Assembly: GCA_964016885.1 (NCBI GenBank)
Contig: OZ024742.1
Coordinates: 362,638,001-362,702,000, forward strand
From: Eledone cirrhosa
Lineage: Eukaryota
Direction: 5' to 3'
Length of the DNA stretch: 64,000 bases
Shown: in pieces, positions 290-64,000 of the stretch
How the letters are laid out: each line of letters opens with the position of its first letter
How positions within the stretch are numbered: the first letter of the stretch is position 1
Notes under the pieces: generated by a model
The model's database searches: none
The model's input: the letters and a program-made list of their open reading frames with translations, nothing else
Told to the model about the DNA's origin: nothing
Translations under genes and position numbers: made by a program

Positions 290-291
<2 letters not shown>

Positions 292-551
292 TTTCTTTAT
301 TAACCACAAGGGTTTACATAAAGTAGACATTAAAGACAGTGCAGGACAATGCAGGACGGTACAAATGGGCATTTCTGCGTGTAAAAAAACAAAAACAGAG
401 GATGTAACAAAAATAACAATGAAAATAACAATGAAAAATTCCCCAATAGGGGGGAGACTTCGGAGGGACATTTGTGGAGAAAGCCCAGTAAAAAGCCACA
501 ATGACCCTGACCACCAAGGCAAGTGCCCTCTCCCAGTTTTCCACCTTTAGT

Positions 552-3500
552 TTACAGATATATACTCAGAGTCGGCCCATTCACTCGGGCCATTCTTGCT
601 TCTCTCACCCATCTTTCAACAAAATGCTGGGAAGAGAGCACTTCCTTCTCTACTCTGATTTTCCTTTTCAAATGAAATTTGAAAAAGTCAATCAGAGCAT
701 CACCGAAGAGGTAAGTGCTCGTCTTCAGCCCTTTCAAACGTGTCCACCATACTATCTCTTTCGCCATGGCCACCAGACAGATAAAAACTGCCTGCCCTTC
801 CCGGCTAAAGGAGGAGGGCGGGGCAATCCTCACGATAGACTCAGATGATAGCTGGATCCGTCCTAAACGCGACAGCAGGTGTTCGACATAAACCCACAAG
901 TCAGCAATTTTCGGACACTGGACGAGTGCGTGCAGGACGGTTTCGTCGCCCTGCGCGCATCTCGGACATGCCCGGCTGACGGCACCTCCATGCCTGTAGA
1001 GTTTATCCCGAACTGGCAAGGCTCCTCGGTAGCACTGCCAGGCCAGAGATTTCTGGAAGTTGTCCATAGGCCCTGGCCCGAAAGTTCTTCCGAAGAGATT
1101 GGCTAGTTGATTTTCGTCGACGCCTAGAGTTTCCCCAAGTACGTCGTCGCTCTTCCCCTCCACTAATCCTCTATAGAACGCCGAGGTGGAGTTTCCACCG
1201 ATCACATTGCCCGATTGGTCGAGGGCTGTGAGCGCCTGAAGACATTCCAGTCTCCAGGCGCTCCCTCTCGGTCTTCGCTTGACCCAGGACTGCAGCTCCG
1301 TCAAGGAAACGAGCTGGGGAAAAACGCGTCTAGCAAACGGCGACCACACCTGATCACCGTCGAGGAAGAGGTGGAGATGTCGTAGCCTGAGCGCGTGCCT
1401 GCGCATCATCAGCCACGGCATGCCCAGCCCTCCACGTAGCGGGTGTTGACAACAGATGGACCGCCTGACCATCGGAGCACGTCCCTTCCACAAAAAGCGA
1501 AAGAGCAAACGCTCCAGCGCAGTCAGGCGAGGCTTAGGACAAGGTACGACGGTTAGGCGGTAGCAGATGACAGACGCGATGTACGCGTTAGCCACCTCCG
1601 CTCGACCTTTCAGGGATAGCTTCCTCTCCGCCCATTTCTGGGTGAGAGAAGCCACCCTGCTCGTCACCTCGTCCCAGTTTTTGTCCGTCTGGAGGTCCGG
1701 ACCGAACCAGACCCCTAGCAATTTAACCGGTCCGTCCGTCCAGCGCCCGACGACGCTGTTGGACGGCATGGACCTGCCTCTCCAGGTGCCGAGCTGCAGG
1801 CCCACTGACTTTTCCTGGTTGATCATTGCTCCTGTCACCGCTTCGTATTCTCTTAGTGTAGTGCCGATCGCCTCGATGTGTTTGGCGTTCGACACCACTA
1901 CGGTGACATCGTCCGCATATGCTGACACGGATCTTCCGCATCCTAGTTCGCGCGGGACTCCCCTCAACGTCTCCAGTTTGTGCAGTAATGGCTCGAGAGT
2001 CAATACGTACAAGAGGGACGAGAGGGGACATCCTTGGCGGACCGAGCGCATGATGTTGAACGGTTCCGACAGGTGACCGTTCACTCTCACCACAGAGCAG
2101 ATGTCGCTGTGCATGGCAGCGATCCAGCCTCTGAAGACGGGCCCAAAGCCAGCCGCCCTCAGGACTGCCGCTAGGTAACGATGGTCGACCCTATCGAAAG
2201 CTTTCGACTGATCTAAATTGATCAAGGACCCACCCGTGCCAGGTTCCCTAGCTACCCTCTCTACGATGTATCGCATGAGGTGGAGGTTGTCGTGGATGGA
2301 TCTGTCGGGAATGGCGCATGTCTGCGCCTCTCCCACCAGACCACCAACGACAAGCGCCAACCTCTTTGCTAGCACCTTGGCCAAAATCTTAAACTCTGTG
2401 TTTAGCAGAGTTATGGGCCGGAAATTGTCTATGTTATCCCCCTTGTTCGGATCCTTTCTCAGCAGTGCCACCGCTCCTCGGCTCACAGAACTGGGAATTC
2501 TCCCGTTCTGTTGCCAGTTGCAGTAGACGTCCGCCAAGAGGCCTCCGAACAAGTCTGGCATCTGTACGTAAAGTTCATAGGGCAGACCATCCAAACCAGG
2601 CGATTTACCCCTTGTGCAGCCAGTCATTGCCTCCCGTACTTCAGCGGCTGTTATCGGCTTTTCGCAACACTTCGCCTCAGTGGCCGAGAGCCGCGGCAGT
2701 CCGTCGAGGTAGACACTAAAGTCCATCCCTCTACCCGGCCCCCCGCTGCCCCCGAACAGCTGAGCGAAGTGTCGCTGAAAAGCTTCACACATTTGCCCGG
2801 GATCGAGTAGCATGCGCCCGTCGTGGTCCACCAAAGACCGGATCGTGGCTTTGTTGCCACGACGCGCCTCCGCCACTCGGGCCCATTGAACGGCTTTCGT
2901 CCCCTCGTGTCTGAGAGCACGCACCCTAGCTCTGACAACGCAGCCTTCGTGCTTTGCATTGAAGAATTGGTCAAGGGCCAATTTCGCCGCAAGCACGTCG
3001 GTCGCAATGCCTTTGCTAAGCGCCTCGTCTAATTTTCTAACTAGTTCTCCCTCTGCTCTATTTTTCTCTATTGCTAAAGCCTTACTAAACCTAATCGATT
3101 CTATTCTAATCGCTCTTTTCAGAGCAAACCACCACTTGTTGTTGACGATGGCCCCCGTCAACGCCCGCTTAACTAGTTCGCTAATCCGGTCTCTGTAGGC
3201 CTTGCGCGCTGGTAAGGACGCGTTTAGCTTCCAGTAGCCGGGTCCTCGTCTATGAAGCCTATCTAAGTCAAGCACACAGGTCACGAATTTGTGGTCCGTG
3301 TAGCTGACTATCTTGAATTGTGGACAGCCTATGCTAGACCTATCTATTTCCCTACAAAATACTCTTTCTAGATATGATCTGGATGACCCTATGCGGTTTG
3401 TCCAAGTCCACATTGGCACATTCGGGAAATCCAATCGGTACCTGTCAGACAGTTCAAAACGCCTGAGCAGGTTGGTGAGGCTCTTGCACCCTCCACCCCT

Positions 3501-3971
3501 ATCCGCTAATCCCACACAGTCCCAGCGTGCATCTAAGATCCCGTTCCAGTCGCCCACTAACACTAAAGAGCGGGACGTTCCAAGAAAGGTCTCCAGACGC
3601 CGGAAGAAATCAGGCCGCCCTGTTCCTGTCGGGGCATAGACGGCCACTAGCCTGAAAGCTTGCCCGTCTCCGCTGGTTACGTCCAGCACCACCAGCTTAC
3701 CCTCTGGGTCCAGGAAGATGGCCCGTATGGCGAGATCCAAACCTCTCCGAAAAAGCACAGCAACTCCTCCACCCGATCCAGGACGGCTGGGAGATGCGTA
3801 CACGTCGTAGCCGCCGAAGATCGGTGCGAAGGCCCGTGCTTCGGAGATTCTGGTCTCGCTGATGGCCACTACATCTATGTTTAGTGACCTGAGGTCGTTG
3901 AGCAGGTGACCCTGCTTCCATGACGACCCCAAGCCACGCGCATTTATGCTGCCTATTCTGAGTGAGGTCAT
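552..3971 (-). CDS. ORF2: apurinic-like endonuclease + reverse transcriptase + C-terminal CCHC (1139 aa)
   Basis: APE motifs SINARGL, SETR, VGDWN, YTDH; RT motifs KSPGLDG, FRPITLLN, DQSKAFD, RQGCPLS, YADD; CPRC-x8-H-x4-C. Confidence 0.96.
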   Translation of the reverse strand: MTSLRIGSINARGLGSSWKQGHLLNDLRSLNIDVVAISETRISEARAFAPIFGGYDVYASPSRPGSGGGVAVLFRRGLDLAIRAIFLDPEGKLVVLDVTSGDGQAFRLVAVYAPTGTGRPDFFRRLETFLGTSRSLVLVGDWNGILDARWDCVGLADRGGGCKSLTNLLRRFELSDRYRLDFPNVPMWTWTNRIGSSRSYLERVFCREIDRSSIGCPQFKIVSYTDHKFVTCVLDLDRLHRRGPGYWKLNASLPARKAYRDRISELVKRALTGAIVNNKWWFALKRAIRIESIRFSKALAIEKNRAEGELVRKLDEALSKGIATDVLAAKLALDQFFNAKHEGCVVRARVRALRHEGTKAVQWARVAEARRGNKATIRSLVDHDGRMLLDPGQMCEAFQRHFAQLFGGSGGPGRGMDFSVYLDGLPRLSATEAKCCEKPITAAEVREAMTGCTRGKSPGLDGLPYELYVQMPDLFGGLLADVYCNWQQNGRIPSSVSRGAVALLRKDPNKGDNIDNFRPITLLNTEFKILAKVLAKRLALVVGGLVGEAQTCAIPDRSIHDNLHLMRYIVERVAREPGTGGSLINLDQSKAFDRVDHRYLAAVLRAAGFGPVFRGWIAAMHSDICSVVRVNGHLSEPFNIMRSVRQGCPLSSLLYVLTLEPLLHKLETLRGVPRELGCGRSVSAYADDVTVVVSNAKHIEAIGTTLREYEAVTGAMINQEKSVGLQLGTWRGRSMPSNSVVGRWTDGPVKLLGVWFGPDLQTDKNWDEVTSRVASLTQKWAERKLSLKGRAEVANAYIASVICYRLTVVPCPKPRLTALERLLFRFLWKGRAPMVRRSICCQHPLRGGLGMPWLMMRRHALRLRHLHLFLDGDQVWSPFARRVFPQLVSLTELQSWVKRRPRGSAWRLECLQALTALDQSGNVIGGNSTSAFYRGLVEGKSDDVLGETLGVDENQLANLFGRTFGPGPMDNFQKSLAWQCYRGALPVRDKLYRHGGAVSRACPRCAQGDETVLHALVQCPKIADLWVYVEHLLSRLGRIQLSSESIVRIAPPSSFSREGQAVFICLVAMAKEIVWWTRLKGLKTSTYLFGDALIDFFKFHLKRKIRVEKEVLSSQHFVERWVREARMARVNGPTLSIYL

Positions 3972-4006
3972 GTTTAAAATAGAGTGGAAAAGATGGGAAA
4001 GACCAC

Positions 4007-6103
4007 TTACCGTACTTTTGGTAGAGGAGGGATGGTTTTTACATCCCTTTTCACTTGATCGTCTGGTGAAGGGACCGTTGAATCGTCCCTTCGGCTGGTC
4101 GTCGGCTCTTCTAAGAGAATGTCTGAGTATACTCTTCGATTGATGGTTCCTCCTAGGTCCCTGAAATCACCAACTGCGTTGGGGAATTTCGTTTTAATAT
4201 TTGTGTATTGTTTCTGTGCTATTTTTAGCAGTCTTATGTTAGTTGGCGTTTTGATTGGTGCTGGTATTATGTAGTCCTGTTGTGAAATGTCTGTGTGTTC
4301 AATTATGTAAGTCATTAGTTTCTTGTTGTGTGTATTTATTGCCGTGCATTTGTTTTTCTGGGGGTGGGGTGTGGTTCTGCTATTTTCTTGTCGTTGTTGC
4401 TGGGTGTGTGTGTTTTGTTGTTGTGTTTGCGATGTTGGTGCTTGTGGTGGTGGTGTTGAAGGTGTTGTTGGCGGTGGGGTTGTCGCCGGTGGTGATGGTG
4501 GCGCTAGTGTGGGTGGTGATGGTGTTGGTGTTGTTGCTGCTGTGGGTCTCTTTGCAGTAGACTTTACCCTTTTCTCATTTCTTTCCTCACTTTTCAAAGG
4601 CGACGATGCGCTGCTTCTGCGTTTGTGCCTTCTTACGACCTTTTGCCATCTCTCTCCCACCTCACACTCCATGTCTGATTCTGTGAGGTCGGGGAGGGGT
4701 ACCAACTCCACTCTTTCACTTGTTGTTGTTGGTGATGTTTGCACTGGAGTCTCTGTTGCAGCTGCATTTGGTATTGCTGTTGTTGTTGTTAGTATTTCCA
4801 CTGCTGCTGCTGTTTTTGATTTCCGTGGAGTGGGTATGGGTGCCACGGGCCTATCGTTCCTGGTTGCCGCTTGTCCTGTTGCTGGTAGCCGTGGAGCCGG
4901 ATTCGGAAGGAGGGGGGTTTTCTCCTTTCTCAGGGTCTTCTCGTTGCAGAAGGCCCTGAGGTGAGTCTTCGATCCACAGCGAAAGCATTTCGGGCGTTTG
5001 CCCTCAACACTTATGGGCAGTTGAGTGCCGTTATCGAAGTCTATCACATCCGGGATAGCTTCGATGCACTCCTGGTTGGTTTGGATTAGCATCTCAATGG
5101 AGGAGCCGACCCAATCTTCTCTTACTTTTTTTTGTACTTGCAGTACAGTTGTTTTGTCCTCGATTCCGACGAGGACAGACGCGGCCAGCCAAGAAGGGGT
5201 CATTCCGGGGGGGACGTGGGTCAGTTTGACCCTCACAATTTTTTGCCCACAGTAGGAGGGCACCAACACCATTTCCTCGCTCCTTAGGGTCACTACTGAT
5301 TGGGCCTTTGCCTCCTGGGGTGTGGCAAAAAGTACGTCTACGGTGGCATATTTTTTGCCTCGGGTGATGTGCGTTTTCCGCTGCCACACAGACCCCAAGG
5401 CTTTTTGTATTTGGGCCTCTGTGGCTCTTTCCACCCTACGGGATTTTGTACTTACTGTACGGTACGTGACCGTACAGTGCTCTTGGGTTTCGAAAAAATT
5501 TTTCGCTGCCTTGCAGATTGCTCGGTGTCCGTTCTTTGTCACCATCTTCTTCGCTTCCTCTAATTCCTCATTTGTTATGAGGATTGTTTCCAAGTTTTTC
5601 GCAATACCTGCAAATGAGATTGGTTTTTCTCTGCTGTTGTTGTTGTCGTCAGAGCTGCTGGTACTTTTGTTGTTGCTGCAGGTACTACGACTACTGCCTC
5701 CGCCGCTGTTGCTGTGGTTGTTGTTGGTGTTGCTGCTGCTAATGCTGTTGTTGTTTATGCTGCTGGTGATGCTGTTTCGGCTGCTACTGTTGTTTTCATT
5801 GTCACTGTTGCTGTTGTTATTACGGCTGCTACTGCTATTATTCCTGACGTCAGACGAATGAACTGGGTTTTCGTATTTCCCGCACACCTGTTTCGTCGCT
5901 GTCGTCGTCGTCGTGGAGAAACCTTGCACGCTTTGCACGAGACTTTTCTTTTCTTTCGTCACTTGCGAAAGAGAAGGGAGGGAGAGAGACACATTTAAAG
6001 AAGGGAGGGAGAGAGACAATCTTCTCTCTGCTGTAGTGATGATTGAGGAAGAAGAAGACGGAATGAGTGGGAGTGACGTATGAAATTTCTTTTTCGTAGC
6101 CAT
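4007..6103 (-). CDS. ORF1 gag-like nucleic-acid-binding protein (698 aa)
   Basis: CFRCGSKTHLRAFC (CX2CX4HX4C) knuckle, RRM-like central region, S/N-rich and P/T-rich low-complexity flanks; upstream of ORF2. Confidence 0.9.
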   Translation of the reverse strand: MATKKKFHTSLPLIPSSSSSIITTAERRLSLSLPSLNVSLSLPSLSQVTKEKKSLVQSVQGFSTTTTTATKQVCGKYENPVHSSDVRNNSSSSRNNNSNSDNENNSSSRNSITSSINNNSISSSNTNNNHSNSGGGSSRSTCSNNKSTSSSDDNNNSREKPISFAGIAKNLETILITNEELEEAKKMVTKNGHRAICKAAKNFFETQEHCTVTYRTVSTKSRRVERATEAQIQKALGSVWQRKTHITRGKKYATVDVLFATPQEAKAQSVVTLRSEEMVLVPSYCGQKIVRVKLTHVPPGMTPSWLAASVLVGIEDKTTVLQVQKKVREDWVGSSIEMLIQTNQECIEAIPDVIDFDNGTQLPISVEGKRPKCFRCGSKTHLRAFCNEKTLRKEKTPLLPNPAPRLPATGQAATRNDRPVAPIPTPRKSKTAAAVEILTTTTAIPNAAATETPVQTSPTTTSERVELVPLPDLTESDMECEVGERWQKVVRRHKRRSSASSPLKSEERNEKRVKSTAKRPTAATTPTPSPPTLAPPSPPATTPPPTTPSTPPPQAPTSQTQQQNTHTQQQRQENSRTTPHPQKNKCTAINTHNKKLMTYIIEHTDISQQDYIIPAPIKTPTNIRLLKIAQKQYTNIKTKFPNAVGDFRDLGGTINRRVYSDILLEEPTTSRRDDSTVPSPDDQVKRDVKTIPPLPKVR

Positions 6104-6317
6104 GTTGTTTTTTGTTTAAAATGAATATTGGGTACAAAACCCCAATAACTGGTTATTTAACCCCGAAGGGCCAAATAACGGACAGAAAGACCCCTCTCAC
6201 GAGGAGGAGGGTGTCTTTATCAACAATTTGGTTCAAGTTTTAAACAATTTACAATTGTTTTAACGGTCAAAAATTACTATACCTTACAGAGCCGAGCCTC
6301 CGTCAACCATGGCATTC

Positions 6318-6365
<48 letters not shown>
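6318..6365. repeat. (TAA)n target/spacer tract
   Basis: Pure run. Confidence 0.99.
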
Positions 6366-7817: not shown

Positions 7818-7829
7818 AATAACAATAAC

Positions 7830-7872: not shown

Positions 7873-7876
<4 letters not shown>

Positions 7877-12800: not shown

Positions 12801-13222
12801 TCGCCCACTAACACTAAAGAGCGGGACGTTCCAAGAAAGGTCTCCAGACGCCGGAAGAAATCAGGCCGCCCTGCTCCTGTCGGGGCATAGACGGCCACTA
12901 ACCTGAAAGCTTGCCCGTCTCCGCTGGTCACGTCCAGCACCACCAACTTACCTTCAGGGTCCAGGAAGATGGCCCGTATGGCAAGATCCAAACCTCTCCG
13001 AAAAAGCACAGCAACTCCTCCCCCCGATCCCGGACGGCTGGGAGATGCGTACACATCGTAGCCGCCGAAGATCGGTGCGAAAGCCTGTGCTTCGGAGATT
13101 CTGGTCTCGCTGATGGCCACTACATCTATGTTTAGTGACCTGAGGTCGTTGAGCAGGTGGCCCTGCTTCCATGACGACCCCAAGCCACGCGCATTTATGC
13201 TCCCTATTCTGAGTGAGGTCAT
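9806..13222 (-). pseudogene. Disrupted ORF2 (APE-RT) of variant B
   Basis: Fragments 12797-13222, 11903-12790, 11679-12176, 9806-11638; TAG at 12797 and two frameshifts. Confidence 0.92.
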
Positions 13223-13256
13223 GTTGAAAAGGAGTGGAAAAGACGGGAAAGACCAC

Positions 13257-15268
13257 TTACCTTACTTCTCGTAGGGGAAGGACGGTTTTTCCATCCTTTT
13301 CACTGCTTGTGGCCTCCTCAGGAAGGATGTCCTTATAAATCCTCCTGGAGAGTGCTTGTTGGAAGTCTCCGATGTCTTTGGGGAATTTTTGTTTTAGTGT
13401 CATGTACGTTTTCTGTGTGATGCGAGTGATTTGTATGTGTGGAGGTGGTGTGAATTTTGGGGTTGTTGTGTAGTCTTTTTCTGTGATGCTGGTGTTGTGT
13501 TGGATGTAGTGTAATAATTGCTTGTTGTTCAAATTTAATGCTGTGTAGTGTGTATCGTTTTGGTTGTTTTGTTTTGTTTGCGTTTGTTGTGGGTTTGTTT
13601 CTGTTTCGCATTTTGGTGACTTTTGTGGTGTAGGTGATGGTGGTGCTGGGGTTAATGATGGTGATGGTGTTGGTATTTGGGTTGATGGGGTTGGTGATGC
13701 TGTTGTGGATGGTGGCATATCTGTCCTAACTTTTTTGTTTCTTAATTTATTTGTTTCCCTCTGTATTTTGTTTTTGGAGGGGGAAGGAAGAGAATTTTTT
13801 CTTTTTTGGTTTCTTTTTTTTTTCCGGATATCGTTTCCCACTCCTCGTCGTCACAATCTGTCTCCAGTTGTGATAGGCCGGGGAGTGGAAAATCCTCCAC
13901 AGCCGTTAGTTTTGGTTGTGGTGTGGTGGATGGTGTAGGCGCTGGTGCTAGTTCTGAAGCGCTGGGTGGTGTTGGTGTTGGTTTTGCTGGTGGTGGTAGT
14001 GGTGTTGGTTTTGCTACTGTTGCTGGGGTTGTTGCTGTTATAGTTGCTTCTGTTGTTGCTGCTACAGTTGTTGCTGCCATCTCTGCTACTGGTGGTGTTG
14101 ATGGTTGTGTCACTGGGGTGGGTAGGAGAGGTGGACTCAACCTTTTAGCCTGAGGGCAGAAAGCCCTTAGGTGGGTTCCTTCACCACAAACGACACACCT
14201 AGGTCTTCTCCCCTCGACAATTACCGTGAGGTGGCTGCCGTCAGTGAGGTCTATTACCTCTGGGATCTCCTCAATGCTTTTTTGGTCCGCTTGGATCAGG
14301 AGCTCCATCCCAGATCCGGACCAGTTTTCCTGCTTTTCTTTTGCTATTGCTATTATTTTCGTGTTGGCTTCGATGCCGGCGAGGACAGCCGCTATTAGCC
14401 AGGGAATTTCGATGGCCGGTGGAACGTGGGTCACCCTGATCTTTACGAGTCTCTGGCCACAATAGCTTGGGACGAGTGTGAAGTCGTCACTTTTTAATGG
14501 GGCCATGGAGTGTTCTCTAGCCTCCTCTGGTGTTTCAAAGAACACATCCACGGTTCCATACTTTTGCCCACGTCTGATGTGGGTTTTTCTTGCCCACACA
14601 TGTCCCAAAGCTTTTTGGATTTGGGACTCGGATGCCCGTTCCACTCGGCGCGATTTTACATTTATTGTTCTATACGACACGGTGCATAGGCGCCGATGCT
14701 CCATTTTATTAGGTGTGTGTGCGGGGGGGGGGGGGGGGGGGTGAGGCTGACCCTGTACCCATCTTTCTTTACCATTTGTTTGGCATTTTCTAAATCCTCC
14801 TGAGTTACCGTGAATGCTTCAAACTGTTTTGCTACTATGGCGAAACTGAGGGTCGGTTTTATAATGTCATTGTTGTTGTTGTTGCTATCGTTATTTGTGT
14901 TAATATTAATTTTAGTTTCAGTTGTGGTGGTGGTGACGTCAGTCGTCTTTGGTGGGGAAGAGTCCATTTTGCTTGATTTCATTTCGACATCACGAGTTAA
15001 TTTATTTTTTCTTCTTTTGTTTCTGTTGTCGCGGTGGTGGTGGGGGTGGTGGTTGTCGCGGTGGTGGTGGTGGTGGAGGCTTTAACACCTGCAGTCATTG
15101 GTAATGGCGGGAAACGAATGTCTGCCTGAGACAAATTTAAAATATTGCTACTGCTTATATTTTTTTTGTTTTGGCAAACGTAGTAACATTTACAATGGTG
15201 GTGTCGGTGTGAGGTGTTAATTTGTGAGGAAGGCTTTCAGCTGCTTGTTGCAGAGGTGAATTAGCCAT
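13257..15268 (-). pseudogene. Frameshifted divergent ORF1 of variant B
   Basis: Fragments 14662-14982, 13742-14704 (CVVCGEGTHLRAFC), 13257-13841; breaks at G and T homopolymers; probable start MANSPLQQ at 15268. Confidence 0.8.
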
Positions 15269-27620: not shown

Positions 27621-30600
27621 CAGCAGTGCCACCGCTCCTCGGCTCACAGAACTGGGAATTCTCCCGTTCTGTTGCCAGTTGCAGTAGACGTCCGCCAAGA
27701 GGCCTCCGAACAAGTCTGGCATCTGTACGTAAAGTTCATAGGGCAGACCATCCAAACCAGGCGATTTACCCGTTGTGCAGCCAGTCATTGCCTCCCTTAC
27801 TTCAGCGGCTGTTATCGGCTTTTCGCAACACTTCGCCTCAGTGGCCGAGAGCCGCGGCAGTCCGTCGAGGTAGACACTAAAGTCCATCCCTCGACCCGGC
27901 CCACCGCTTCCCCCGAACAGCTGAGCGAAGTGTCGCTGAAAAGCTTCACACATTTGCCCGGGATCGAGTAGCATGCGCCCGTCGTGGTCCCCCAAAGACC
28001 GGATCGTGGCTTTGTTGCCACGATGGGCCTCCGCCACTCAGGCCCATTGAACGGCTTTCGTCCCCTCGTGTCTGAGAGCACGCACCCTTGCTCTGACAAC
28101 GCAGCCTTCGTGCTTTGCATTGAAGAATTGGTCAAGGGCCAATTTCGCCGCAAGCACGTCGGTCGCAATGCCTTTGCTAAGCGCCTCGTCTAATTTTCTA
28201 ACTAGTTCTCCCTCTGCTCTATTTATCTCTATTGCTAAAGCCTTACTAAACCTAATGGATTCTATTCTAATCGCTCTTTTCAGAGCAAACCACCACTTGT
28301 TGTTGACGATGGCCCCCGTCAACGCCCGCTTAACTAGTTCGCTAATCCGGTCTCTGTAGGCCTTGCGCGCTGGTAAGGACGCGTTTAGCTTCCAGTAGCC
28401 GGATCCTCGTCTATGAAGCCTATCTAAGTCAAGCACACAGATCACGAATTTGTGGTCCGTGTAGCTGACTATCTTGAATTGTGGACAGCCTATGCTAGAC
28501 CTATCTATTTCCCTACAAAATACTCTATCTAGATATGATCTGGATGACCCTATGCGATTTGTCCAAGTCCACATTGGCGCATTCGGGAAATCCAATCGGT
28601 ACCTGTCAGACAGTTCAAAACGCCTGAGCAGGTTGGTGAGGCTCTTGCACCCTCCACCCCTATCCGCTAATCCCACACAGTCCCAGCGTGCATCTAAGAT
28701 CCCGTTCCAGTCGCCCACTAACACTAAAGAGCGGGACGATCCAAGAAAGGTCTCCAGACGCCGGAAGAAATCAGGCCGCCCTGCTCCTGTCGGGGCATAG
28801 ACGGCCACTAGCCTGAAAGCTTGCCCGTCTCCGCTGGTCACGTCCAGCACCACCAGCTTACCCTCTGGGTCCAGGAAGATGGCCCGTATGGCGAGATCCA
28901 AACCTCTCCGAAATAGCACAGCAACTCCTCCCCCCGATCCAGGACGGCTGGGAGATGCGTACACATCGTAGCCGCCGAAGATCGGTGCGAAGGCCCGTGC
29001 TTCGGAGATTCTGGTCTCGCTGATGGCCACTACATCTATTTTTAGTGACCTGAGGTCGTTGAGCAGGTGACCCTGCTTCCATGACGACCCCAAGCCACGC
29101 GCATTTATGCTGCCTATTCTGAGTGAGGTCATGTTTAAAATAGAGTGGAAAAGATGGGAAAGACCACTTATCGTACTTTTGGTAGAGGAGGGATGGTTTT
29201 TACATCCCTTTTCACTTGATCGTCTGGTGAAGGGACCGTTGAATCGTCCCTTCGGCTGGTCGTCGGCTCTTCTAAGAGAATGTCTGAATATACTCTTCGA
29301 TTGATAGTTCCTCCTAGGTCCCTGAAATCACCAACTGCGTTGGGGAATTTCGTTTTAATGTTTGTGTATTGTTTCTGTGCTATTTTTAGCAGTCTTATGT
29401 TAGTTGGCGTTTTGATTGGTGCTGGTATTATGTAGTCGTGTTGTGAAATGTCTGTGTGTTCAATTATGTAAGTCATTAGTTTCTTGTTGTGTGTATTTAT
29501 TGCCGTGCATTTGTTTTTCTGGGGGTGGGGTGTGGTTTTGCTATTTTCTTGTCGTTGTTGCTGAGTGTGTGTATTTTGTTGTTGTGTTTGCGACGTTGGT
29601 GCTTGTGGTGGTGGTGTTGAAGGTGTTGTTGTCGGTGGGGTTGTCGCTGGTGGTGATGGTGGTGCTAGTGTGGGTGGTAATGGTGTTGGTGGTGTTGCTG
29701 CTGTGGGTCTCTTTGCAGTAGACTTTACCCTTTTCTCATTTCTTTCCTCCGTTTTCAAAGGCGACGATGCGCTGCTTCTGCGTTTGTGCCTTCTTACGAC
29801 CTTTTGCCATCTCTCTCCCACCTCACACTCCATGTCTGATTCTGTGAGGTCGGGGAGGGGTACCAGCTCCACTCTTTCACTTGTTGTTGTTGGTCATGTT
29901 TGCAGTGGAGTCTCTGTTGCAGCTGCATTTGGTATTGCTGTTGTTGTTGTTAATATTTCCTCTGTTGCTGCTGTTTTTGATTTCCGTGGCGTGGGTATGG
30001 GTGCCACGGACCTATCGTTCCTGGTTGCCGCTTGTCCTGCTGCTGGTAGCCGTGGAGCCGGTTTCGGAAGGAGGGGGGGTTTCTCCTTTCTCAGGGTCTT
30101 CTCGCTGCAGAAGGCCCTGAGGTGAGTCTTCGATCCACAGCGAAAGCATTTCGGGCGTTTTCCCTCAACACTTATGGGCAGTTGAGTGCCGTTATCGAAG
30201 TCTATCACATCCGGGATAGCTTCGATGCACTCCTGGTTGGTTTGGATTAGCATCTCAATGGAGGTGCCGACCCAATCTTCTCTTACTTTTTTCTGTACTT
30301 GCAGTACAGTTGTTTTGTCCTCGATTCCGACGAGGACAGACGCGGCCAGCCAAGAAGGGGCCATCCCGGGGGGGGGGGGGGCGTGCGTCAGTTTGACCCT
30401 CACTATTTTTTGCCCGCAGTAGGAGGGCACCAACACCATTTCCTCGCTCCTTAGCGTCACTACGGATTGGGCCTTTGCCTCCTGGGGTGTGGCAAAAAGT
30501 ACGTCTACGGTGGCATATTTTTTTCCTCGGGTGATGTGCGTTTTCCGCTGCCACACAGACCCTAAGGCTTTTTGTATTTGAGCCTCTGTGGCTCTTTCCA

Positions 30601-36548: not shown

Positions 36549-36551
36549 GAT

Positions 36552-39500: not shown

Positions 39501-42500
39501 ATGAAGCCTATCTATGTCAAGCACACAGATCACGAATTTGTGGTCCGTGTAGCTGACTATCTTGAATTGTGGACAGCCTATGCTAGACCTATCTATTTCC
39601 CTACAAAATACTCTATCTAGATATGATCTGGATGACCCTATGCGATTAGTCCAAGTCCACATTGGCACATTCGGGAAATACAATCGGTACCTGTCAGACA
39701 GTTCAAAACGCCTGGGCAGTTTGGTGAGGCTCTTGCACCCTCCACCTCTATCCGCTAATCCCACATAGTCCCAGCGTGCATCTAAGATCCCGTTCCAGTG
39801 GCTCACTAACACTAAAGAGCGGGACGTTCCAAGAAACGTCTCCAGACGCCGGAAGAAATCAGGCGGCCCTGCTCCTGTCGGGGCATAGACGGCCACTAGC
39901 CTGAAAGCTTGCCCGTATCCGATGGTCACGTCCAGCACCACCAATTTACCCTCTGGGTCCAGGAAGATTCACAGCAACTCCTCCCCCCGATCTAGGACGG
40001 CTGGGAGATGCGTACACATCGTAGCCGCCGAAGATCGGTGCGAAGGCCCGTGCTTCGGAGATTCTGGTCTCGCTGATGGCCACTACATCTATGTTTAGTG
40101 ACCTGAGTTCGTTGAGCAGGTGACCCTGCTTCCATGACGACCCCAAGCCACGCGCATTTATGCTGCCTATTCTGAGTGAGGTCATGTTTAAAATGCAGTG
40201 GAAAAGATGGGAAAGACCACTTACCGTACTTTTCGTAGAGGAAGGATGGTTTCTCCATCCCTTTTCACTTGATCGTCTGGTGAAGGGACCGTTGAATCGT
40301 CCCTTCGGCTGGTCGTCGGCTCTTCTATGAGTATGTCCGAATATACTCTCCGGTTGAGAGTCCCTCCTAGGTCTCTGAAATCACCATCTGCGTTGGGGAA
40401 TTTCGTTTTAATGTCTGTGTATTTTTTCTGTGCTATTTTTACCAGTCTTATGTTCGTTGGCGTTTTGATTGGTGCTGGTATTATATAGTCGTGCTGTGAT
40501 ATGTCTGTGTGTTCAATTATGTAAGTCATTAGTTTCTTGTTGTGTGTATTTATTGCCGTGCATTTCTTTTCTGGGTGTAGGGTGTGGTTCTGCTATTTTC
40601 TTGTCGTTGTTGCTGGGTGTGTGTGTTTTGTTGTTGTGTTTGCGATGTTGGTGCTTGTGGTGGTGGTGTTGAAGGTGTTGTTGTTGTTGTCGGTGGGGTT
40701 GTCGCCGGTGGTGATGGTGGTGCTAGTGTAGGTGGTGATGATGTTGGTGGTGTTGCTGCTGTGAGTCTCTTTGCAGTAGCCTTTACCCTTTTTTCATTTT
40801 TTACCTCCCTTTTCGAAGGCGACGATGCGCTGCTTCTGCGTTTGTGCCTTCTTACGACCTTTTGCCATCCCTCTCCCACGTCACACTTCATGTCTGATTC
40901 TGTGAGGTAGGGGAGTGGTACCAGCTCCACTCTTTCACTTGTTGTTGTTGGTGATGTTTGCAGTGGAGTCTCTGTTGCAGCTGCATCTGGTATTACTGTT
41001 GTTGTTGTTAATACTTCCACTGCTGCTGTTGTTCTTGATTTCCGTGGCGTGGGTATGGGTGCCACGGACCTATCGTTCCTTGTTTCCGCTTGTCCTGTTG
41101 CTGGTAGCCGTGAAGCCGGTTTTGGAAGGAGGGGGGTTTTCTCCTTTCTCAGGGTCTTCTCGTTGCAGAAGGCACTGAGGTGAGTCTTCGATCCACAGCG
41201 AAAGCATTTCGGGAGTTTGCCCTCAACACTTATGGGCAGTTGAGTGCCGTTATCGAAGTCTATCACATCCGGGATAGCTTCGATGCACTCCTGGTTGGTT
41301 TGGATTAACATCTCAATGGAGGTGCCGACCCAATCTTCTCTTACTTTTTTCTGTACTTGCAGTACATTTGTTTTGTCTTCGATTCCAACGAGGACAGACG
41401 CGGCCAGCCAAGATTGGGCCATCCCTGGGGGGGGGGGGGGGCGGCGACGACGTGGGTCAGTTTGATCCTCACCATTTTTTGCTCGCAGTAGGAGGGCACC
41501 AACACCATTTCCTCGCTCCTTAGGGTCACTAAGGATTGAGCATTTGCCTCCTGGGGTGTGGCATATTTCTTGCCTCGGGTGATATGCGTTTTCCGCTGCC
41601 ACACAGACCCTAAGGCTTTTTGTATTTGAGCCTCTGTGGCTCTTTCAACCTTACGGGATTTTGTGCTTACTGTACGGTCCGTGACCGTACAGTGCTGTTG
41701 GGTTTCGAAAAGTTTTTCGGCTGCCTTGCAGATTGCTCGGTGTCCGGTTTTCGTCACCATCTACTTCGCTTCCTGTAATTCCTCATTTGTTATGAGGATG
41801 GTTTCCAGGTTCTTTGCGATACCTGCAAACGAGATTGGTTTTTCTTTGCTGCTGTTGTTGTTGTTGTTGTTGTTGTCGTCCGAGCTGCTGTTACTTTTGT
41901 TGTTGCTGCAGGTACTACGACTACTGCCACCGCCGCTGCTGCTGTGGTTGTTGTTGTTGTTACTGCTGCTGTTGTTGTTGCTGTTAATGCTGTTGTTGTT
42001 TATGCTGTTGCTGATGCTGTTGCGGCTGCCACTGTGGTTTTCCTTGACACTGTTGCTGCTGCTGCTGCTGTTATTACGACTGCTACTGCTATTATTCACG
42101 ACGTCAGACGAATGAAATGGGTTTTCGTATTTCCCGCACACCTTTTTCGTCGTTGTCGTCGTCGTCGTGGAGAAATTTTGCACGCTTTTCGCGTGATTTT
42201 TCTTTACTGGCGTCGCTTGCGAAAGAGAAGGGAGGGAGAGAGACACATTTAGAGAAGGGAGGGAGAGAGACAATCTTCTCTCTGCTGTAATGACGATTGA
42301 GGAAGAAGACGGAATGAGTGGGAGTGACTTGTGAAAATTATTTTTCGTAGCCATGTTTTTTTTTGTTTAAAATAAATATTGGGCACAAAACCCCAATAAG
42401 CGGTTATTTAACTCCGAAGGGCCAAATAACGGGCAGAAATACCCCTCTCACGAGGAGGAGGGTGTTTTTGTCTACAATTTGGTCTAAGTTTTAAACAATT

Positions 42501-45800: not shown

Positions 45801-46308
45801 TGAGCAGGTTGGTGAGGCTCTTGCACCCTCCACCCCTATCCGCTAATCCCACACAGTCCCAGCGTGCATCTAAGATCCCGTTCCAGTCGCCCACTAACAC
45901 TAAAGAGCGGGACGTTCCAAGAAAGGTCTCCAGACGCCGGAAGAAATCAGGCCGCCCTGCTCCTGTCGGGGCATAGACGGCCACTAGCCTGAAAGCTTGC
46001 CCGTCTCCGCTGGTCACGTCCAGCACCACCAGCTTACCCTCTGGGTCCAGGAAGATGGCCCGTATGGCGAGATCCAAACCTCTCCGAAAAAGCACAGCAA
46101 CTCCTCCACCCGATCCAGGACGGCTGGGAGATGCGTACACATCGTAGCCGCCGAAGATCGGTGCGAAGGCCCGTGCTTCGGAGATTCTGGTCTCGCTGAT
46201 GGCCACTACATCTATGTTTAGTGACCTGAGGTCGTTGAGCAGGTGACCCTGCTTCCATGACGACCCCAAGCCACGCGCATTTATGCTGCCTATTCTGAGT
46301 GAGGTCAT
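42889..46308 (-). CDS. ORF2 APE-RT-CCHC (1139 aa)
   Basis: Same motifs as 552-3971, with SYLDR. Confidence 0.96.
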   Translation of the reverse strand: MTSLRIGSINARGLGSSWKQGHLLNDLRSLNIDVVAISETRISEARAFAPIFGGYDVYASPSRPGSGGGVAVLFRRGLDLAIRAIFLDPEGKLVVLDVTSGDGQAFRLVAVYAPTGAGRPDFFRRLETFLGTSRSLVLVGDWNGILDARWDCVGLADRGGGCKSLTNLLRRFELSDRYRLDFPNVPMWTWTNRIGSSRSYLDRVFCREIDRSSIGCPQFKIVSYTDHKFVTCVLDLDRLHRRGPGYWKLNASLPARKAYRDRISELVKRALTGAIVNNKWWFALKRAIRIESIRFSKALAIEKNRAEGELVRKLDEALSKGIATDVLAAKLALDQFFNAKHEGCVVRARVRALRHEGTKAVQWARVAEARRGNKATIRSLVDHDGRMLLDPGQMCEAFQRHFTQLFGGSGGPGRGMDFSVYLDGLPRLSATEAKCCEKPITAAEVREAMTGCTRGKSPGLDGLPYELYVQMPDLFGGLLADVYCNWQQNGRIPSSVSRGAVALLRKDPNKGDNIDNFRPITLLNTEFKILAKVLAKRLALVVGGLVGKAQTCAIPDRSIHDNLHLMRYIVERVAREPGTGGSLINLDQSKAFDRVDHRYLAAVLRAAGFGPVFRGWIAAMHSDICSVVRVNGHLSEPFNIMRSVRQGCPLSSLLYVLTLEPLLHKLETLRGVPRELGCGRSVSAYADDVTVVVSNAKHIEAIGTTLREYEAVTGAMINQEKSVGLQLGTWRGRSMPSNSVVGRWTDGPVKLLGVWFGPDLQTDKNWDEVTSRVASLTQKWAERKLSLKGRAEVANAYIASVICYRLTVVPCPKPRLTALERLLFRFLWMGRAPMVRRSICCQHPLRGGLGMPWLMMRRHALRLRHLHLFLDGDQVWSPFARRVFPQLVSLTELQSWVKRRPRGSAWRLECLQALTALDQSGNVIGGNSTSAFYRGLVEGKSDDVLGETLGVDENQLANLFGRTFGPGPMDNFQKSLAWQCYRGALPVRDKLYRHGGAVSRACPRCAQGDETVLHALVQCPKIADLWVYVEHLLSRLGRIQLSSESIVRIAPPSSFSREGQAVFICLVAMAKEIVWWTRLKGLKTSTYLFGDALIDFFKFHLKRKIRVEKEVLSSQHFVERWVREARMARVNGPTLSIYL

Positions 46309-46343
46309 GTTTAAAATAGAGTGGAAAAGATGGGAAAGACCAC

Positions 46344-48473
46344 TTACCGTACTTTTGGTAGAGGAGGGATGGTTTTTACATCCCTTTTCACTTGATCGTC
46401 TGGTGAAGGGACCGTTGAATCGTCCCTTCGGCTGGTCGTCGGCTCTTCTAAGAGAATGTCTGAATATACTCTTCGATTAATGGTTCCTCCTAGGTCCCTG
46501 AAATCACCAACTGCGTTGGGGAATTTCGTTTTAATGTTTGTGTATTGTTTCTGTGCTATTTTTAGCAGTCTTATGTTAGTTGGCGTTTTGATTGGTGCTG
46601 GTATTATGTAGTCCTGTTGTGAAATGTCTGTGTGTTCAATTATGTAAGTCATTAGTTTCTTGTTGTGTGTGTTTATTGCCGTGCATTTGTTTTTCTGGGA
46701 GTGGGGTGTGGTTCTGCTATTTTCTTGTCGTTGTTGCTGGGTGTGTGTGTTTTGTTGTTGTGTTTGCGATGTTGGTGCTTGTGGTGGTGGTGTTGAAGGT
46801 GTTGTTGGCGGTGGGGTTGTCGCCGGTGGTGATGGTGGTGCTGGTGTGGGTGGTGATGGTGTTGGTGGTGTTGCTGCTGTGGGTCTCTTTGCAGTAGACT
46901 TTACCCTTTTCTCATTTCTTTCCTCCCTTTTCAAAGGCGACGATGCGCTGCTTCTGCGTTTGTGCCTTCTTGAGACCTTTTGCCATCCCTCTCCCACCTC
47001 ACACTCCATGTCTGATTCTGTAAGGTCGGGGAGGGGTACCAGCTCCACTCTTTCACTTGTTGTTGTTGGTGATGTTTGCACTGGAGTCTCTGTTGCAGCT
47101 GCATTTGGTATTGCTGTTGTTGTTGTTAATATTTCCACTGCTGCTGCTGTCTTTGATTTCCGTGGAGTGGGTATGGGTGCCACGGACCTATCGTTCCTGG
47201 TTGCCGCTTGTCCTGTTGCTGGTAGCCGTGGAACCGGATTCGGGAGGAGGGGGGTTTTCTCCTTTCTCATGGTCTTCTCGTTGCAGAAGGCCCTGAGGTG
47301 AGTCTTCGATCCACAGCGAAAGCATTTCGGGCGTTTGCCCTCAACACTTATGGGCAGTTGAGTGCCGTTATCGAAGTCTATCACATCCGGGATAGCTTCG
47401 ATGCACTCCTGGTTGGTTTGGATTAGCATCTCAATGGAGGAGCCGACCCAATCTTCTCTTACTTTTTTCTGTACTTGCAGTACAGTTGTTTTGTCCTCGA
47501 TTCCGACGAGGACAGACGCGGCCAGCCAAGAAGGGGTCATTCCGGGGGGGACGTGGGTCAGTTTGACCCTCACAATTTTTTGCCCGCAGTAGGAGGGCAC
47601 CAACACCATTTCCTCGCTCCTTAGGGTCACTACTGATTGGGCCTTTGCCTCCTGGGGTGTGGCAAAAAGTACGTCTACGGTGGCGTATTTTTTGCCTCGG
47701 GTGATGTGCGTTTTTCTCTGCCACACAGACCCCAAGGCTTTTTGTATTTGGGCCTCTGTGGCTCTTTCCACCCTACGGGATTTTGTACTTACTGTACGGT
47801 ACGTGACCGTACAGTGCTCTTGGGTTTCGAAAAAATTTTTCGCTGCCTTGCAGATTGCTCGGTGTCCGTTCTTTGTCACCATCTTCTTCGCTTCCTCTAA
47901 TTCCTCATTTGTTATGAGGATTGTTTCCAGGTTTTTCGCAATACCTGCAAATGAGATTGGTTTTTCTCTGCTGTTGTTGTTGTCGTCAGAGCTGCTGGTA
48001 CTTTTGTTGTTGCTGCAGGTACTACGACTACTGCCTCCGCCGCTGTTGCTGTGGTTGTTGTTGGTGTTGCTGCTGCTAATGCTGTTGTTGTTTATGCTGC
48101 TGGTGATGCTGTTGCGGCTGCTACTGTTGTTTTCATTGTCACTGTTGCTGTTGTTATTACGGCTGCTACTGCTATTATTCCTGACCTCAGACGAATGAAC
48201 TGGGTTTTCGTATTTCCCGCACACCTGTTTCGTCGCTGTCGTCGTCGTCGTGGAGAAACCTTGCACGCTTTGCACGAGACTTTTCTTTTCTTTCGTCGCT
48301 TGCGAAAGAGAAGGGAGGGAGAGAGACACATTTAAAGAAGGGAGGGAGAGAGACAATCTTCTCTCTGCTGTAGTGATGATTGAGGAAGAAGAAGACGGAA
48401 TGAGTGGGAGTGACGTATGAAATTTCTTTTTCGTAGCCATGTTTTTTTGTTTAAAATGAAATTTTGGGTACAA
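46344..48473 (-). CDS. ORF1 gag-like CCHC protein (probable ATG at 48440, MATKKK)
   Basis: Near-identical to 4007-6103. Confidence 0.9.
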   Translation of the reverse strand: MYPKFHFKQKNMATKKKFHTSLPLIPSSSSSIITTAERRLSLSLPSLNVSLSLPSLSQATKEKKSLVQSVQGFSTTTTTATKQVCGKYENPVHSSEVRNNSSSSRNNNSNSDNENNSSSRNSITSSINNNSISSSNTNNNHSNSGGGSSRSTCSNNKSTSSSDDNNNSREKPISFAGIAKNLETILITNEELEEAKKMVTKNGHRAICKAAKNFFETQEHCTVTYRTVSTKSRRVERATEAQIQKALGSVWQRKTHITRGKKYATVDVLFATPQEAKAQSVVTLRSEEMVLVPSYCGQKIVRVKLTHVPPGMTPSWLAASVLVGIEDKTTVLQVQKKVREDWVGSSIEMLIQTNQECIEAIPDVIDFDNGTQLPISVEGKRPKCFRCGSKTHLRAFCNEKTMRKEKTPLLPNPVPRLPATGQAATRNDRSVAPIPTPRKSKTAAAVEILTTTTAIPNAAATETPVQTSPTTTSERVELVPLPDLTESDMECEVGEGWQKVSRRHKRRSSASSPLKREERNEKRVKSTAKRPTAATPPTPSPPTPAPPSPPATTPPPTTPSTPPPQAPTSQTQQQNTHTQQQRQENSRTTPHSQKNKCTAINTHNKKLMTYIIEHTDISQQDYIIPAPIKTPTNIRLLKIAQKQYTNIKTKFPNAVGDFRDLGGTINRRVYSDILLEEPTTSRRDDSTVPSPDDQVKRDVKTIPPLPKVR

Positions 48474-51900: not shown

Positions 51901-52398
51901 GGTGAGGCTCTTGCACCCTCCACCCCTATCCGCTAATCCCACACAGTCCCAGCGTGCATCTAAGATCCCGTTCCAGTCGCCCACTAACACTAAAGAGCGC
52001 GACGTTCCAAGAAAGGTCTCCAGACGCCGGAAGAAATCAGGCCGCCCTGCTCCTGTCGGGGCATAGACGGCCACTAGCCTGAAAGCTTGCCCGTCTCCGC
52101 TGGTCACGTCCAGCACCACCAGCTTACCCTCTGGGTCCAGGAAGATGGCCCGTATGGCGAGATCCAAACCTCTCCGAAAAAGCACAGCAACTCCTCCACC
52201 CGATCCAGGACGGCTGGGAGATGCGTACACATCGTAGCCGCCGAAGATCGGTGCGAAGGCCCGTGCTTCGGAGATTCTGGTCTCGCTGATGGCCACTACA
52301 TCTATGTTTAGTGACCTGAGGTCGTTGAGCAGGTGACCCTGCTTCCATGACGACCCCAAGCCACGCGCATTTATGCTGCCTATTCTGAGTGAGGTCAT
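48979..52398 (-). CDS. ORF2 APE-RT-CCHC (1139 aa)
   Basis: Same motifs as 552-3971. Confidence 0.96.
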   Translation of the reverse strand: MTSLRIGSINARGLGSSWKQGHLLNDLRSLNIDVVAISETRISEARAFAPIFGGYDVYASPSRPGSGGGVAVLFRRGLDLAIRAIFLDPEGKLVVLDVTSGDGQAFRLVAVYAPTGAGRPDFFRRLETFLGTSRSLVLVGDWNGILDARWDCVGLADRGGGCKSLTNLLRRFELSDRYRLDFPNVPMWTWTNRIGSSRSYLDRVFCREIDRSSIGCPQFKIVSYTDHKFVICVLDLDRLHRRGPGYWKLNASLPARKAYRDRISELVKRALTGAIVNNKWWFALKRAIRIESIRFSKALAIEKNRAEGELVRKLDEALSKGIATDVLAAKLALDQFFNAKHEGCVVRARVRALRHEGTKAVQWARVAEARRGNKATIRSLVDHDGRMLLDPGQMCEAFQRHFAQLFGGSGGPGRGMDFSVYLDGLPRLSATEARCCEKPITAAEVREAMTGCTRGKSPGLDGLPYELYVQMPDLFGGLLADVYCNWQQNGRIPSSVSRGAVALLRKDPNKGDNIDNFRPITLLNTEFKILAKVLAKRLALVVGGLVGEAQTCAIPDRSIHDNLHLMRYIVERVAREPGTGGSLINLDQSKAFDRVDHRYLAAVLRAAGFGPVFRGWIAAMHSDICSVVRVNGHLSEPFNIMRSVRQGCPLSSLLYVLTLEPLLHKLETLRGVPRELGCGRSVSAYADDVTVVVSNAKHIEAIGTTLREYEAVTGAMINQEKSVGLQLGTWRGRSMPSNSVVGRWTDGPVKLLGVWFGPDLQTDKNWDEVTSRVASLTQKWAERKLSLKGRAEVANAYIASVICYRLTVVPCPKPRLTALERLLFRFLWKGRAPMVRRSICCQHPLRGGLGMPWLMMRRHALRLRHLHLFLDGDQVWSPFARRVFPQLVSLTELQSWVKRRPRGSAWRLECLQALTALDQSGNVIGGNSTSAFYRGLVEGKSDDVLGETLGVDENQLANLFGRTFGPGPMDNFQKSLAWQCYRGALPVRDKLYRHGGAVSRACPRCAQGDETVLHALVQCPKIADLWVYVEHLLSRLGRIQLSSESIVRIAPPSSFSREGQAVFICLVAMAKEIVWWTRLKGLKTSTYLFGDALIDFFKFHLKRKIRVEKEVLSSQHFVERWVREARMARVNGPTLSIYL

Positions 52399-52433
52399 GT
52401 TTAAAATAGAGTGGAAAAGATGGGAAAGACCAC

Positions 52434-63139: not shown

Positions 63140-64000
63140 GTTTCTTTTATTTGCCACTAGGGCATCAAAAGTGGGACAAGTACAAAGGGGGGAGTTTACA
63201 CAAAAAGGCGTCCTCAATAAGGAGGAGGCAATAACAAAATATAAAAATAAAATAAGATATAATAAAAAATAAAATTTATAACAAAATACTCAATAGAGAG
63301 GAGGCGCCTTGGGGGGGGTCGCACACACCCCCGAAAAAAGTGTGCAACCCTTCTCCTCAGGAGCACAGAGAAGGGGTGCTCCCTTGGTCTTTCATCTTCC
63401 TCACCTATAGTCTGATGTAGAGTGAAGGCCCATTCACACGGGCCATTCTCGCCACTTTCACCCATCTTTCATAGAAACGGCTGGGGTGCAGCACCTCTCT
63501 CTCCATCCTGATCCTTCTTCCGAAATGATAACGGAAGAAACGGACCAGTTGTTGGCCAGAGAGAAAGGTGCCTGACCTCAGTCCTTTCAGACGCGTCCAC
63601 CATACAACCTCTTTCGCCATGGCTATTACGCACAGAAACACCGCCTCTGCTTCATCTTTGAAGGGGGGAGGCGGCTTGATCATTACAATAGACTCGGTGG
63701 TCAACCGGATCGGTCCCGCCCTTGACAGCAGTTGTTCGACATAGCCCCACAGATCGGCTACGCCCGAGCTGTGTACCAATGCGTGTGCAACGGTTTCCTC
63801 GTCGCACACGCATCTGGGACAGATCTTTTTGGCGGGGTCCCTACCCGGGCGCCCGTGTCTGTAGAGCCTTTCTCGAACGGGTAAAGCCCCTCGGTAGCAC
63901 TGCCAGGCCAGGGACTTCTGGAAGTTGTCCATAGGTCCCGGGCTGAATGTCCTACCGAACAGGCTGGCCAGTTCGTCCTCCTCCATGTCTAGGGCTTCTC
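63140..64000 (-). mobile_element. 3' end of a sister L1/Tx1 family (C); ORF2 C-terminus 63405->64000; continues right of the window
   Basis: LFGRTFSPGPMDNFQKSLAWQCYRGALPVR, CPRC, VWWTRLKGL shared with family A; different 3'UTR ending AATAAAAGAAAC-(AT)n. Confidence 0.9.

Follow-up and report, generated by a model that had tools for sequence, protein, structure and literature searches.

A 5′ splice-site motif on the ORF1 stop codon of a Tx1-type LINE from Eledone cirrhosa and its possible part in ORF1-only expression

Drosophila copia produces a spliced RNA that carries gag alone. Gag-only spliced RNAs have also been described for Arabidopsis EVD (PMC5580714) and barley BARE1 (PMC3735527), and in the scheme described for these elements a conserved U1 donor ends the structural gene, the structural protein is made in excess over the catalytic one, and the unspliced RNA serves as the template. 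In long interspersed nuclear elements (LINEs), the ratio of the two proteins, ORF1p and ORF2p, and the choice of the RNA to be copied are usually credited to inefficient reinitiation plus cis preference; a layer of control based on splicing or on U1 has been known so far mainly from long terminal repeat (LTR) elements. Translation of the second open reading frame (ORF2) by termination-reinitiation is described for mammalian L1, with a spacer of 63 nt, and for silkworm SART1, with UAAUG and a downstream structure (PMC5972666, PMC4091050, PMC2241872), and Zorro3 requires its first ORF2 ATG (PMC1965478). Spliced human L1 RNAs are also on record (SpORF2, PMC2896524; SpIREs, PMC5860796). Here we analyze 64,000 nucleotides of Eledone cirrhosa DNA (GCA_964016885.1, contig OZ024742.1, forward-strand positions 362,638,001 to 362,702,000), referred to as the window, which contain several copies of a two-ORF, Tx1-type LINE with a conserved donor-like motif on its ORF1 stop codon. 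Our main reading, to which we assign a probability of roughly 0.45, is that ribosomes would reinitiate at the AUG of ORF2 to translate it and that the donor would be spliced past ORF2, giving an mRNA for ORF1 alone.

Six minus-strand copies of this one family span the ORF1/ORF2 junction in the window: A1, A5, and A6 are intact, A3 is truncated, and A4 and B are broken. In A1, the minus strand from 4010 to 3958 reads GTAAGT...CTCAG over 53 nt; the ORF1 TAA lies within the donor, at 4009-4007, and the ORF2 ATG starts at 3971. The conserved motif, AGTA[C/A]GGTAAGTGG (4003..4016, minus, intron position +1 at 4010), was delimited from the sequence and from the comparison of copy B with the related L001 family (see below). 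It runs into an inter-ORF spacer of 35 nt (3972..4006, minus) in which a pyrimidine tract (4002-3976) directly follows the donor and AAAC precedes the ATG. G|GTAAGT overlaps the ORF1 TAA in five of the six copies; the other minus-strand junctions are located at 13209..13260 in B (52 nt), 40172..40224 in A4, 46295..46347 in A5, 52385..52437 in A6, and 29119..29171 in A3, where the donor is lost through an A at +1 (29171). An earlier interpretation made from the letters of the window (the sequence-only reading) had reported the arrangement in A4, A5, A6, and B and its absence from A3, and both hold base for base, as does the statement that the donor and the CTCAG acceptor are in phase 2, the AG being the first after the donor (52-53 nt on) and in frame with ORF2. 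The donor had been called perfect as well; it does overlap the stop, but the perfection is confined to positions -1 to +6, and over the 11 positions of the consensus the A copies match at 7 and B at 8. Since the broken copies B and A4 keep the donor too, it is not confined to intact elements. Its phase follows from ORF1 stopping on the TAA of G-TAA-GT and is no separate coincidence, and phase-2 AGs are frequent (6/14 first AGs in A1, A5, and A6; 51/124 YAGs in ORF2). On the sense strand of A5, the donor is the sole 7/7 match (-1 to +6) among 314 GTs, and the antisense strand likewise holds one GGTAAGT. The probability of finding a TAA inside G-TAA-GT is ca. 1.4-1.5% (28 of the 1,904 TAAs in the window), or 0.4% when the exonic G is included. 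Taken by itself, the window sequence is suggestive; it is the conservation in the L001 family that indicates a donor that is probably more than chance. A further sense GTAAGT is found inside ORF1, at 47792.

Copy B (about 9562-15475, minus) is a full-length chimera in which a divergent 5′ untranslated region (UTR) and ORF1 are set on an A-type ORF2. Its identity to A5 is 49-61% in ORF1, 79% from -90 to -38, 92% in the spacer, and 96-98% in ORF2, and the switch point is located ~85 nt ahead of the ORF2 ATG, at a 42-nt indel. Given this chimeric nature, its junction was most simply inherited together with that of A, and B, a broken copy, is no independent witness. The TTGTACCCAAAATTT motif is common to both 5′ UTR types.

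DNA of relatives was recovered by an alignment scan of prokaryotic assemblies that gave 41 loci, 39 of which are animal-like tandem arrays of two families, L001 and L018, in one metagenome-assembled genome (MAG) record. These loci (L001-L039, contigs CAXXMW010000002-18) are tandem animal-type LINEs, i.e., eukaryotic DNA within a bacterial MAG record. The remaining two, L040 and L041, are L1-like elements in other MAG records, with an ORF1/ORF2 overlap in L040 and a TAAATG stop-start in L041. A single-protein scan of bacterial genomes gave nine pattern matches, none of them a relative. The tree of relatives was built by a quick method and used for relationships only. Compared with the family of the window, the L001 family has 41% identity in ORF2 and 23% in the ORF1 core (E 2e-11). 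Its junction reads GAG TAA G|GTAAGT, 7 nt, ATG, so that the ATG comes 13 nt after the donor. The donor is present, and ORF1 has stopped at the TAA preceding it, in 54/54 copies, with a spacer of 14 nt (15 in one); L001 ORF1 is open for up to 757 codons before this TAA. The 14-mer that B and L001 have in common at the donor is their longest match outside ORF2. In the L018 family (ORF2 identity of 41% to A5 and 48% to L001), both copies have a TAATG (UAAUG) stop-start in frame with ORF2 (2368-2381 in L018) and no donor there; a strong donor match (9/11) is found ~220 nt into ORF2 (L018, 2592), and in B one is present about as deep (12951). These comparisons support the view of the donor as a real, conserved motif.

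Donors are also associated with the ORF2 stop. A second donor follows it in 45/45 L001-family copies, as GTAAGTA in 25 and GTGAGTA in 20; the core varies only between A and G at +3, the A at +7 is fixed, and the flanks are variable. In five of these copies the ORF2 stop lies inside the second donor (CGG TAA GT), the same layout as in ORF1 of the window, and downstream of this L001 donor come a pyrimidine tract and, at 34-45 nt, an AG. In L018, CAG|GTAAGT lies at a distance of 43 nt from the ORF2 stop; in the window, the C63 family (62% amino acid identity to A5) has an ORF2 stop TAG directly followed by GTGAGG (63397..63407, minus). With a rule of GTRAG, at least 7/11 matching positions, and a location between -5 and +45, a stop-linked donor is present at 4/6 ORF ends other than those of its discovery, versus 1.65% of background windows (nominal p ~1e-6). 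To judge from this pattern, the donor looks to be under selection.

ORF2 is very probably translated from its own AUG by reinitiation. Its ATG is preceded by AAC, as is that of ORF1, and a Met is found 6-11 residues ahead of the catalytic Asn of the endonuclease in 48 of the 60 relatives (among 160 retrieved proteins) that could be placed at endonuclease strand 1. The spacing in the window is 9, and 9/17 close heads have exactly the same. The second codon begins with G in 24/35 relatives, against a background of 27%, and internal Mets occur at the ORF2-start site in several N-terminally extended predictions, protein P0157 included. Within a single lineage the inter-ORF spacers measure 35, 34, 14-15, and -1 nt, and such variation in length and frame fits reinitiation. 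The sequence-only reading had argued that no fixed frameshift or readthrough could serve both A and B but that splicing could; reinitiation serves all of these spacers. A stem-loop of 23 bp is predicted at +35 to +88 of ORF2 (3884..3937, minus, in A1 coordinates, folded in the other copies), with z values of -3.7 in A5, -3.4 in B, and -3.8 in A3; A4 has another fold (z -2.3), and the region ranks 6 among 119 windows. No UGGGA was found 40-90 nt upstream of the ORF1 stop, where AGGGA occurs twice in A and not in the shared part of B. A long hairpin around the ORF1 stop was considered and set aside as a weak lead (z -0.6 to -2.5; the A5 fold differs from those of A4 and B). The A-specific 42-nt ORF1 segment (46403-46432, minus, and equivalents) folds as an 8-bp hairpin whose purine strand can pair with the spacer instead, and a second hairpin precedes the stop. 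The strongest predicted structure of the element is located in the reverse transcriptase (RT) region, at ORF2 +1605 (~44600-44700, minus; z -8.2 with 30 shuffles).

The main reading proposes that ORF2 would be read by termination-reinitiation on the unspliced two-gene RNA, which would also remain the copied template, and that the donor would bind the U1 small nuclear ribonucleoprotein and be joined, with ORF2 skipped, to a 3′ UTR acceptor, giving the ORF1-only mRNA. Binding of U1 seems probable from the motif; given binding, we see about an even chance of productive splicing to an ORF1-only RNA. U-rich sequence after a donor aids U1 binding (TIA-1), and here the pyrimidine tract follows the donor and does not lie where an acceptor needs it. 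With the donor placed on the stop, the exon junction would remain beside that codon, and nonsense-mediated decay would, by the 50-nt rule, be avoided. The candidate partner in A1, selected by ranking of YAGs, is a T-rich tract plus CAG in the 3′ UTR (375..420, minus), with the last intron base at 375, 73 nt before AATAAA; the candidates in the other copies are at 9647 (B), 36637 (A4), 42711 (A5), and 48802 (A6), all minus. The best acceptor-like site of the whole unit falls in the 3′ UTR in A5 (first of 209 YAGs), B (first of 189), and L018 (first of 178), and the L001 candidates rank 2 and 5 of 166. The predicted splice would remove 3.64 kb and add 19 residues to ORF1p after the junction codon, followed by a stop and then by the AATAAA; in the broken copy A4 the predicted RNA would stop 3 codons after the junction, whereas the ORF1p of the L001 family would stay as it is. 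AATAAA or ATTAAA was not found inside ORF2 of A5 or L001, and the first in B is at +3455. The 3′ UTR of L001 (9471-9930) has several invariant blocks of 15-21 nt that look like paired stems and are candidates for recognition by the RT. As a tentative extension, rather doubtful as yet, the stop-codon donors may sort the RNA into three pools: an ORF1-only mRNA from the ORF1 donor, a translated mRNA from the ORF2 donor that lacks a stretch of the 3′ UTR and does not serve for copying, and the unspliced template.

Several observations weigh against this reading. The rule for stop-linked donors was fixed only once the data had been seen. The families are related to each other, and 1/7 control ends also pass the rule (1/3 Dong-like, 0/4 L040/L041). 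The ORF1 donor is absent in L018, and no donor follows the ORF2 stop in A or B. The sequence around the L001 ORF1 donor is conserved generally, so that only the match between families counts. The 3′ UTR acceptors do not stand out significantly from those in shuffles of their own T-rich UTRs (115, 297, 1647, 445, and 726 of 2,000 shuffles) and are not at homologous positions, and in C63 the main T tract is not followed by any YAG. Regarding ORF1-only genomic copies, there were no junction matches in the window, and 54/54 L001-family ORF1 ends continue into the spacer, in loci that were fetched through ORF2. It should also be noted that predicted proteins are made to begin with Met by the gene callers, which biases the counts of Met, and true starts may be GTG or TTG.

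The donor may instead be a U1 site that is rarely spliced and that guards the full-length RNA against early 3′ ends, or delays the element's own poly(A) site, with ORF2 still translated by reinitiation; here the donor-tract-AG units of 34-53 nt would be too short to splice. We consider this possible, if somewhat unlikely. It would agree with the nonsignificant 3′ UTR acceptors, with the 45/45 L001-family copies that keep the putative intron of the second donor even though the conserved 3′ blocks are located downstream of the candidate acceptor, with the recurrence of donor, tract, and AG at 34-45 nt after the L001 ORF2 stop, and with the fact that the elements terminate in (ATT)n and not in poly(A); U1 is described as acting in this way in EVD (PMC5580714). 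However, there is no canonical cryptic poly(A) hexamer near the ORF1 donor to be suppressed, and the closeness of the donors to stop codons is left unexplained. Less likely, we think, is a motif that has nothing to do with U1, either a termination/reinitiation signal with a strong UAAG context and tandem stops in two frames, a donor-like binding site for a protein, or something partly due to chance. That AGTAAGGTAAGT has TAA-G in two frames, one used per family, speaks for it, together with the predicted pairing of the ORF1 end with the spacer (z -0.6 to -2.5) and the restriction of the ORF1 motif to only two lineages. On the other hand, matching sites follow ORF2 as well, where nothing reinitiates, and the variation described for the second donor, with A/G at +3 as the only change in the core and an A fixed at +7 where the exon side is weak, is what pairing with U1 predicts.

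The sequence-only reading had favored an intron of 52-53 nt that would fuse ORF1 to ORF2, with an acceptor CAG (3958..3960, minus) within the Leu-Arg codons of endonuclease strand 1. A spliced fusion is unlikely, and we give it a very small chance even in the family of the window; we do not regard this CAG as the partner of the donor. In L001, ORF1 stops before the donor (54/54), therefore no fusion is possible through it, and L018 has no donor; thus, what is kept in related families is the donor of L001, not the donor-acceptor pair with its fusion frame. A weak GT five bases upstream in L001 would lead to an AG at 38 nt (9/11 head sequences) or, in the commonest type, to one past the catalytic Asn. 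The acceptor is weak, with 9/16 pyrimidines and 4 T, equaled by 60/210 YAGs in pyrimidines and by 87 in T; the tract is at the wrong end of the intron (+9 to +35, not beside the AG), a caveat already raised with the proposal, and the branch point was assessed by eye only. In favor of a fusion, the first AG is in frame, the join would keep the hydrophobic-Arg start of strand 1, and both the 34- and 35-nt spacers are compatible with it. At the position of the acceptor Arg, the 60 placed relatives have 22 K, 11 R, 10 N, and 6 S (R or S in only 17/60); among 17 informative heads from 20 close relatives, R is the commonest residue (9), and the other 8, decayed copies, have K, C, G, or I. The join would read V-R-I, and V is found there in 3/59 relatives. 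In one of the 160 proteins, P0157, a single frame joins the last part of the ORF1 core and the ORF1 tail to the endonuclease head (0 and 2 of 1,000 shuffles for the ORF1 pieces). However, P0157 retains the ORF2 Met that the proposed splice removes and lacks ~225 ORF1 residues; it may represent a gene model or else a copy in decay. A word search, which is a weak test, found no longer ORF1-ORF2 fused protein among 8,000 longer candidates; another found no ORF1 relatives among 342 near-length candidates, and the ORF1 tail as a query had no atlas match. Genomic copies lacking exactly the 53 nt amount to 0/6 in the window, whereas spliced L1 RNAs are reported to be copied in cis, reaching ~2% of full-length copies (PMC5860796); the sample of six is small and tells most if cis preference applies. 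The length of 53 nt sits between the minimum intron cut-offs given for other species, above those of fly and zebrafish (40 and 50 nt) and below the 60 nt of human, moth, and Arabidopsis (10.1101/2023.12.29.573658). A recursive splice site or a SpORF2-like acceptor upstream of the ATG was rejected, as the spacer contains no AG. Finally, ORF2 could be reached in the A copies if ribosomes shifted by -1 within the final 45-55 codons of ORF1: ahead of the ATG, the ORF2 frame of these copies is open for 168-195 nt, and the end of ORF1 has predicted hairpins nearby. This appears extremely unlikely: B requires the other frame, which stays open for no more than 39 nt, in L001 the ORF2 frame is closed by a stop 9 nt ahead of the ATG, and the ORF2 Met is conserved.

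In foamy viruses, Pol comes from a spliced pol mRNA. Their Pol is expressed apart from Gag (PMC8402755), which makes these viruses the nearest analogue to an RT expressed by splicing; the product is a separate Pol and not a fusion and, unlike in foamy virus, splicing into ORF2 finds no support in the relatives studied here. The resemblance to L1 and SART1 (PMC5972666, PMC4091050, PMC2241872) lies in a short spacer of variable length and frame and in an ORF2 AUG just before endonuclease strand 1; as in SART1 (PMC5972666), there is a UAAUG in the relative L018, and the stem-loop predicted downstream of the ORF2 AUG, outscored by 5 of the 119 windows, may recall the SART1 structure. Unlike in both, the spacer starts with a conserved donor, and reinitiation is here deduced from sequence. 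Unlike in calicivirus-type termination upstream ribosome-binding sites (TURBS), UGGGA is missing upstream of the ORF1 stop. Splice sites inside an element of the L1 group recall human SpORF2 (PMC2896524) and SpIREs (PMC5860796), but those RNAs lose the 5′ UTR or ORF1, are deemed detrimental or incidental, and use sites that are not on the ORF1 stop, and, unlike in human L1, no spliced genomic copy was seen here. As in copia and EVD, a conserved donor stands at the end of the structural ORF, in two of the three families with a visible junction. Copia and EVD are, however, LTR elements with one gag-pol frame, and ours is a non-LTR element with two ORFs, a stop on or beside the donor, and splicing that is only predicted; it may work like copia and EVD but is no member of that group. 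That families sharing 41-48% of their ORF2 residues keep a putative U1 site on stop codons points to a layer of control by splicing or by U1. No description of such a layer on the stop codons of other non-LTR elements was found in the literature searched, nor any report of a stop-linked donor or a spliced ORF1-ORF2 fusion in Tx1, most subscription papers and Repbase reports being outside its scope. If true, the sorting of RNAs by stop-codon donors would mean that a non-LTR element has evolved a strategy like that of copia and BARE.

Self-BLAST and a tandem-repeat scan showed a LINE cluster set within (ATT/TAA)n arrays across the window. A1 is a full-length copy flanked by (ATT)n arrays (290..6317, minus; delimited by self-BLAST, tandem repeats, and its ends). 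Its ORF1 (4007..6103, minus, 698 aa, ending K-V-R-stop) has an RNA-binding and CCHC zinc-knuckle core. It scores 0.94 to zf-CCHC/ZCCHC3-like clusters in a feature search, a tool that provides leads, and C-x2-C-x4-H-x4-C is present in the sequence; Pfam gave a subthreshold MBD match only. ORF2 (552..3971, minus, 1,139 aa, with its own ATG at 3971) codes for an apurinic/apyrimidinic endonuclease (APE), an RT, and a zf-RVT zinc finger, identified in the A5 copy as PF03372 (N-terminal), PF00078, and PF13966 (C-terminal). The closest solved structure in the PDB is L1 ORF2p (E 3.5e-52), with R2 at 1e-21; a gene model from Octopus sinensis, identical at 64% over one piece, is the only match that carries a name. 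Insertion is directly after (ATT)n in 6/6 copies, at this one locus. The element is probably of the Tx1 type, the label given to it in the sequence-only reading. The sequence fits a microsatellite-targeting element of this type: like Kibi and Koshi, Tx1-clade non-LTR retrotransposons described as targeting microsatellites (PMC4494074), it has two ORFs, an APE-RT-zinc finger ORF2, a CCHC ORF1, and insertion into a simple repeat, here (ATT)n. Both L1-Tx1 and Dong-R4 appear among the recently active elements listed for Octopus vulgaris (PMC13282606). A4, A5, and A6 form a head-to-tail array (36521-54811) linked by (ATT)n, in which A5 and A6 are >99.5% identical and A4 has 43 stops within the ORF2 frame; in B, ORF1 is frameshifted and the ORF2 frame has 5 stops. 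As there were no Rfam matches in the window or in three relative loci and no tRNA in the window, the elements have no RNA-gene target among these families.

The same (TAA)n arrays contain single-ORF RT elements on the plus strand, at 6244-9245, 16986-20544, and 22260-25794, which carry a motif of restriction-like endonucleases and, at the C terminus, a zinc finger; an intact frame of this type (1,141 aa) is located at 22260-25685 (+). They resemble Dong/R4 elements. One microsatellite target is common to two LINE clades. A second, decayed single-ORF family occupies 25760-27623 and 31568-36376 (+), and a degenerate long (TA)n array is found at 58897-59453. At 60324-61025 (+) there is a short frame with no Pfam match, the end of which carries a motif typical of RTE-type RT C termini.

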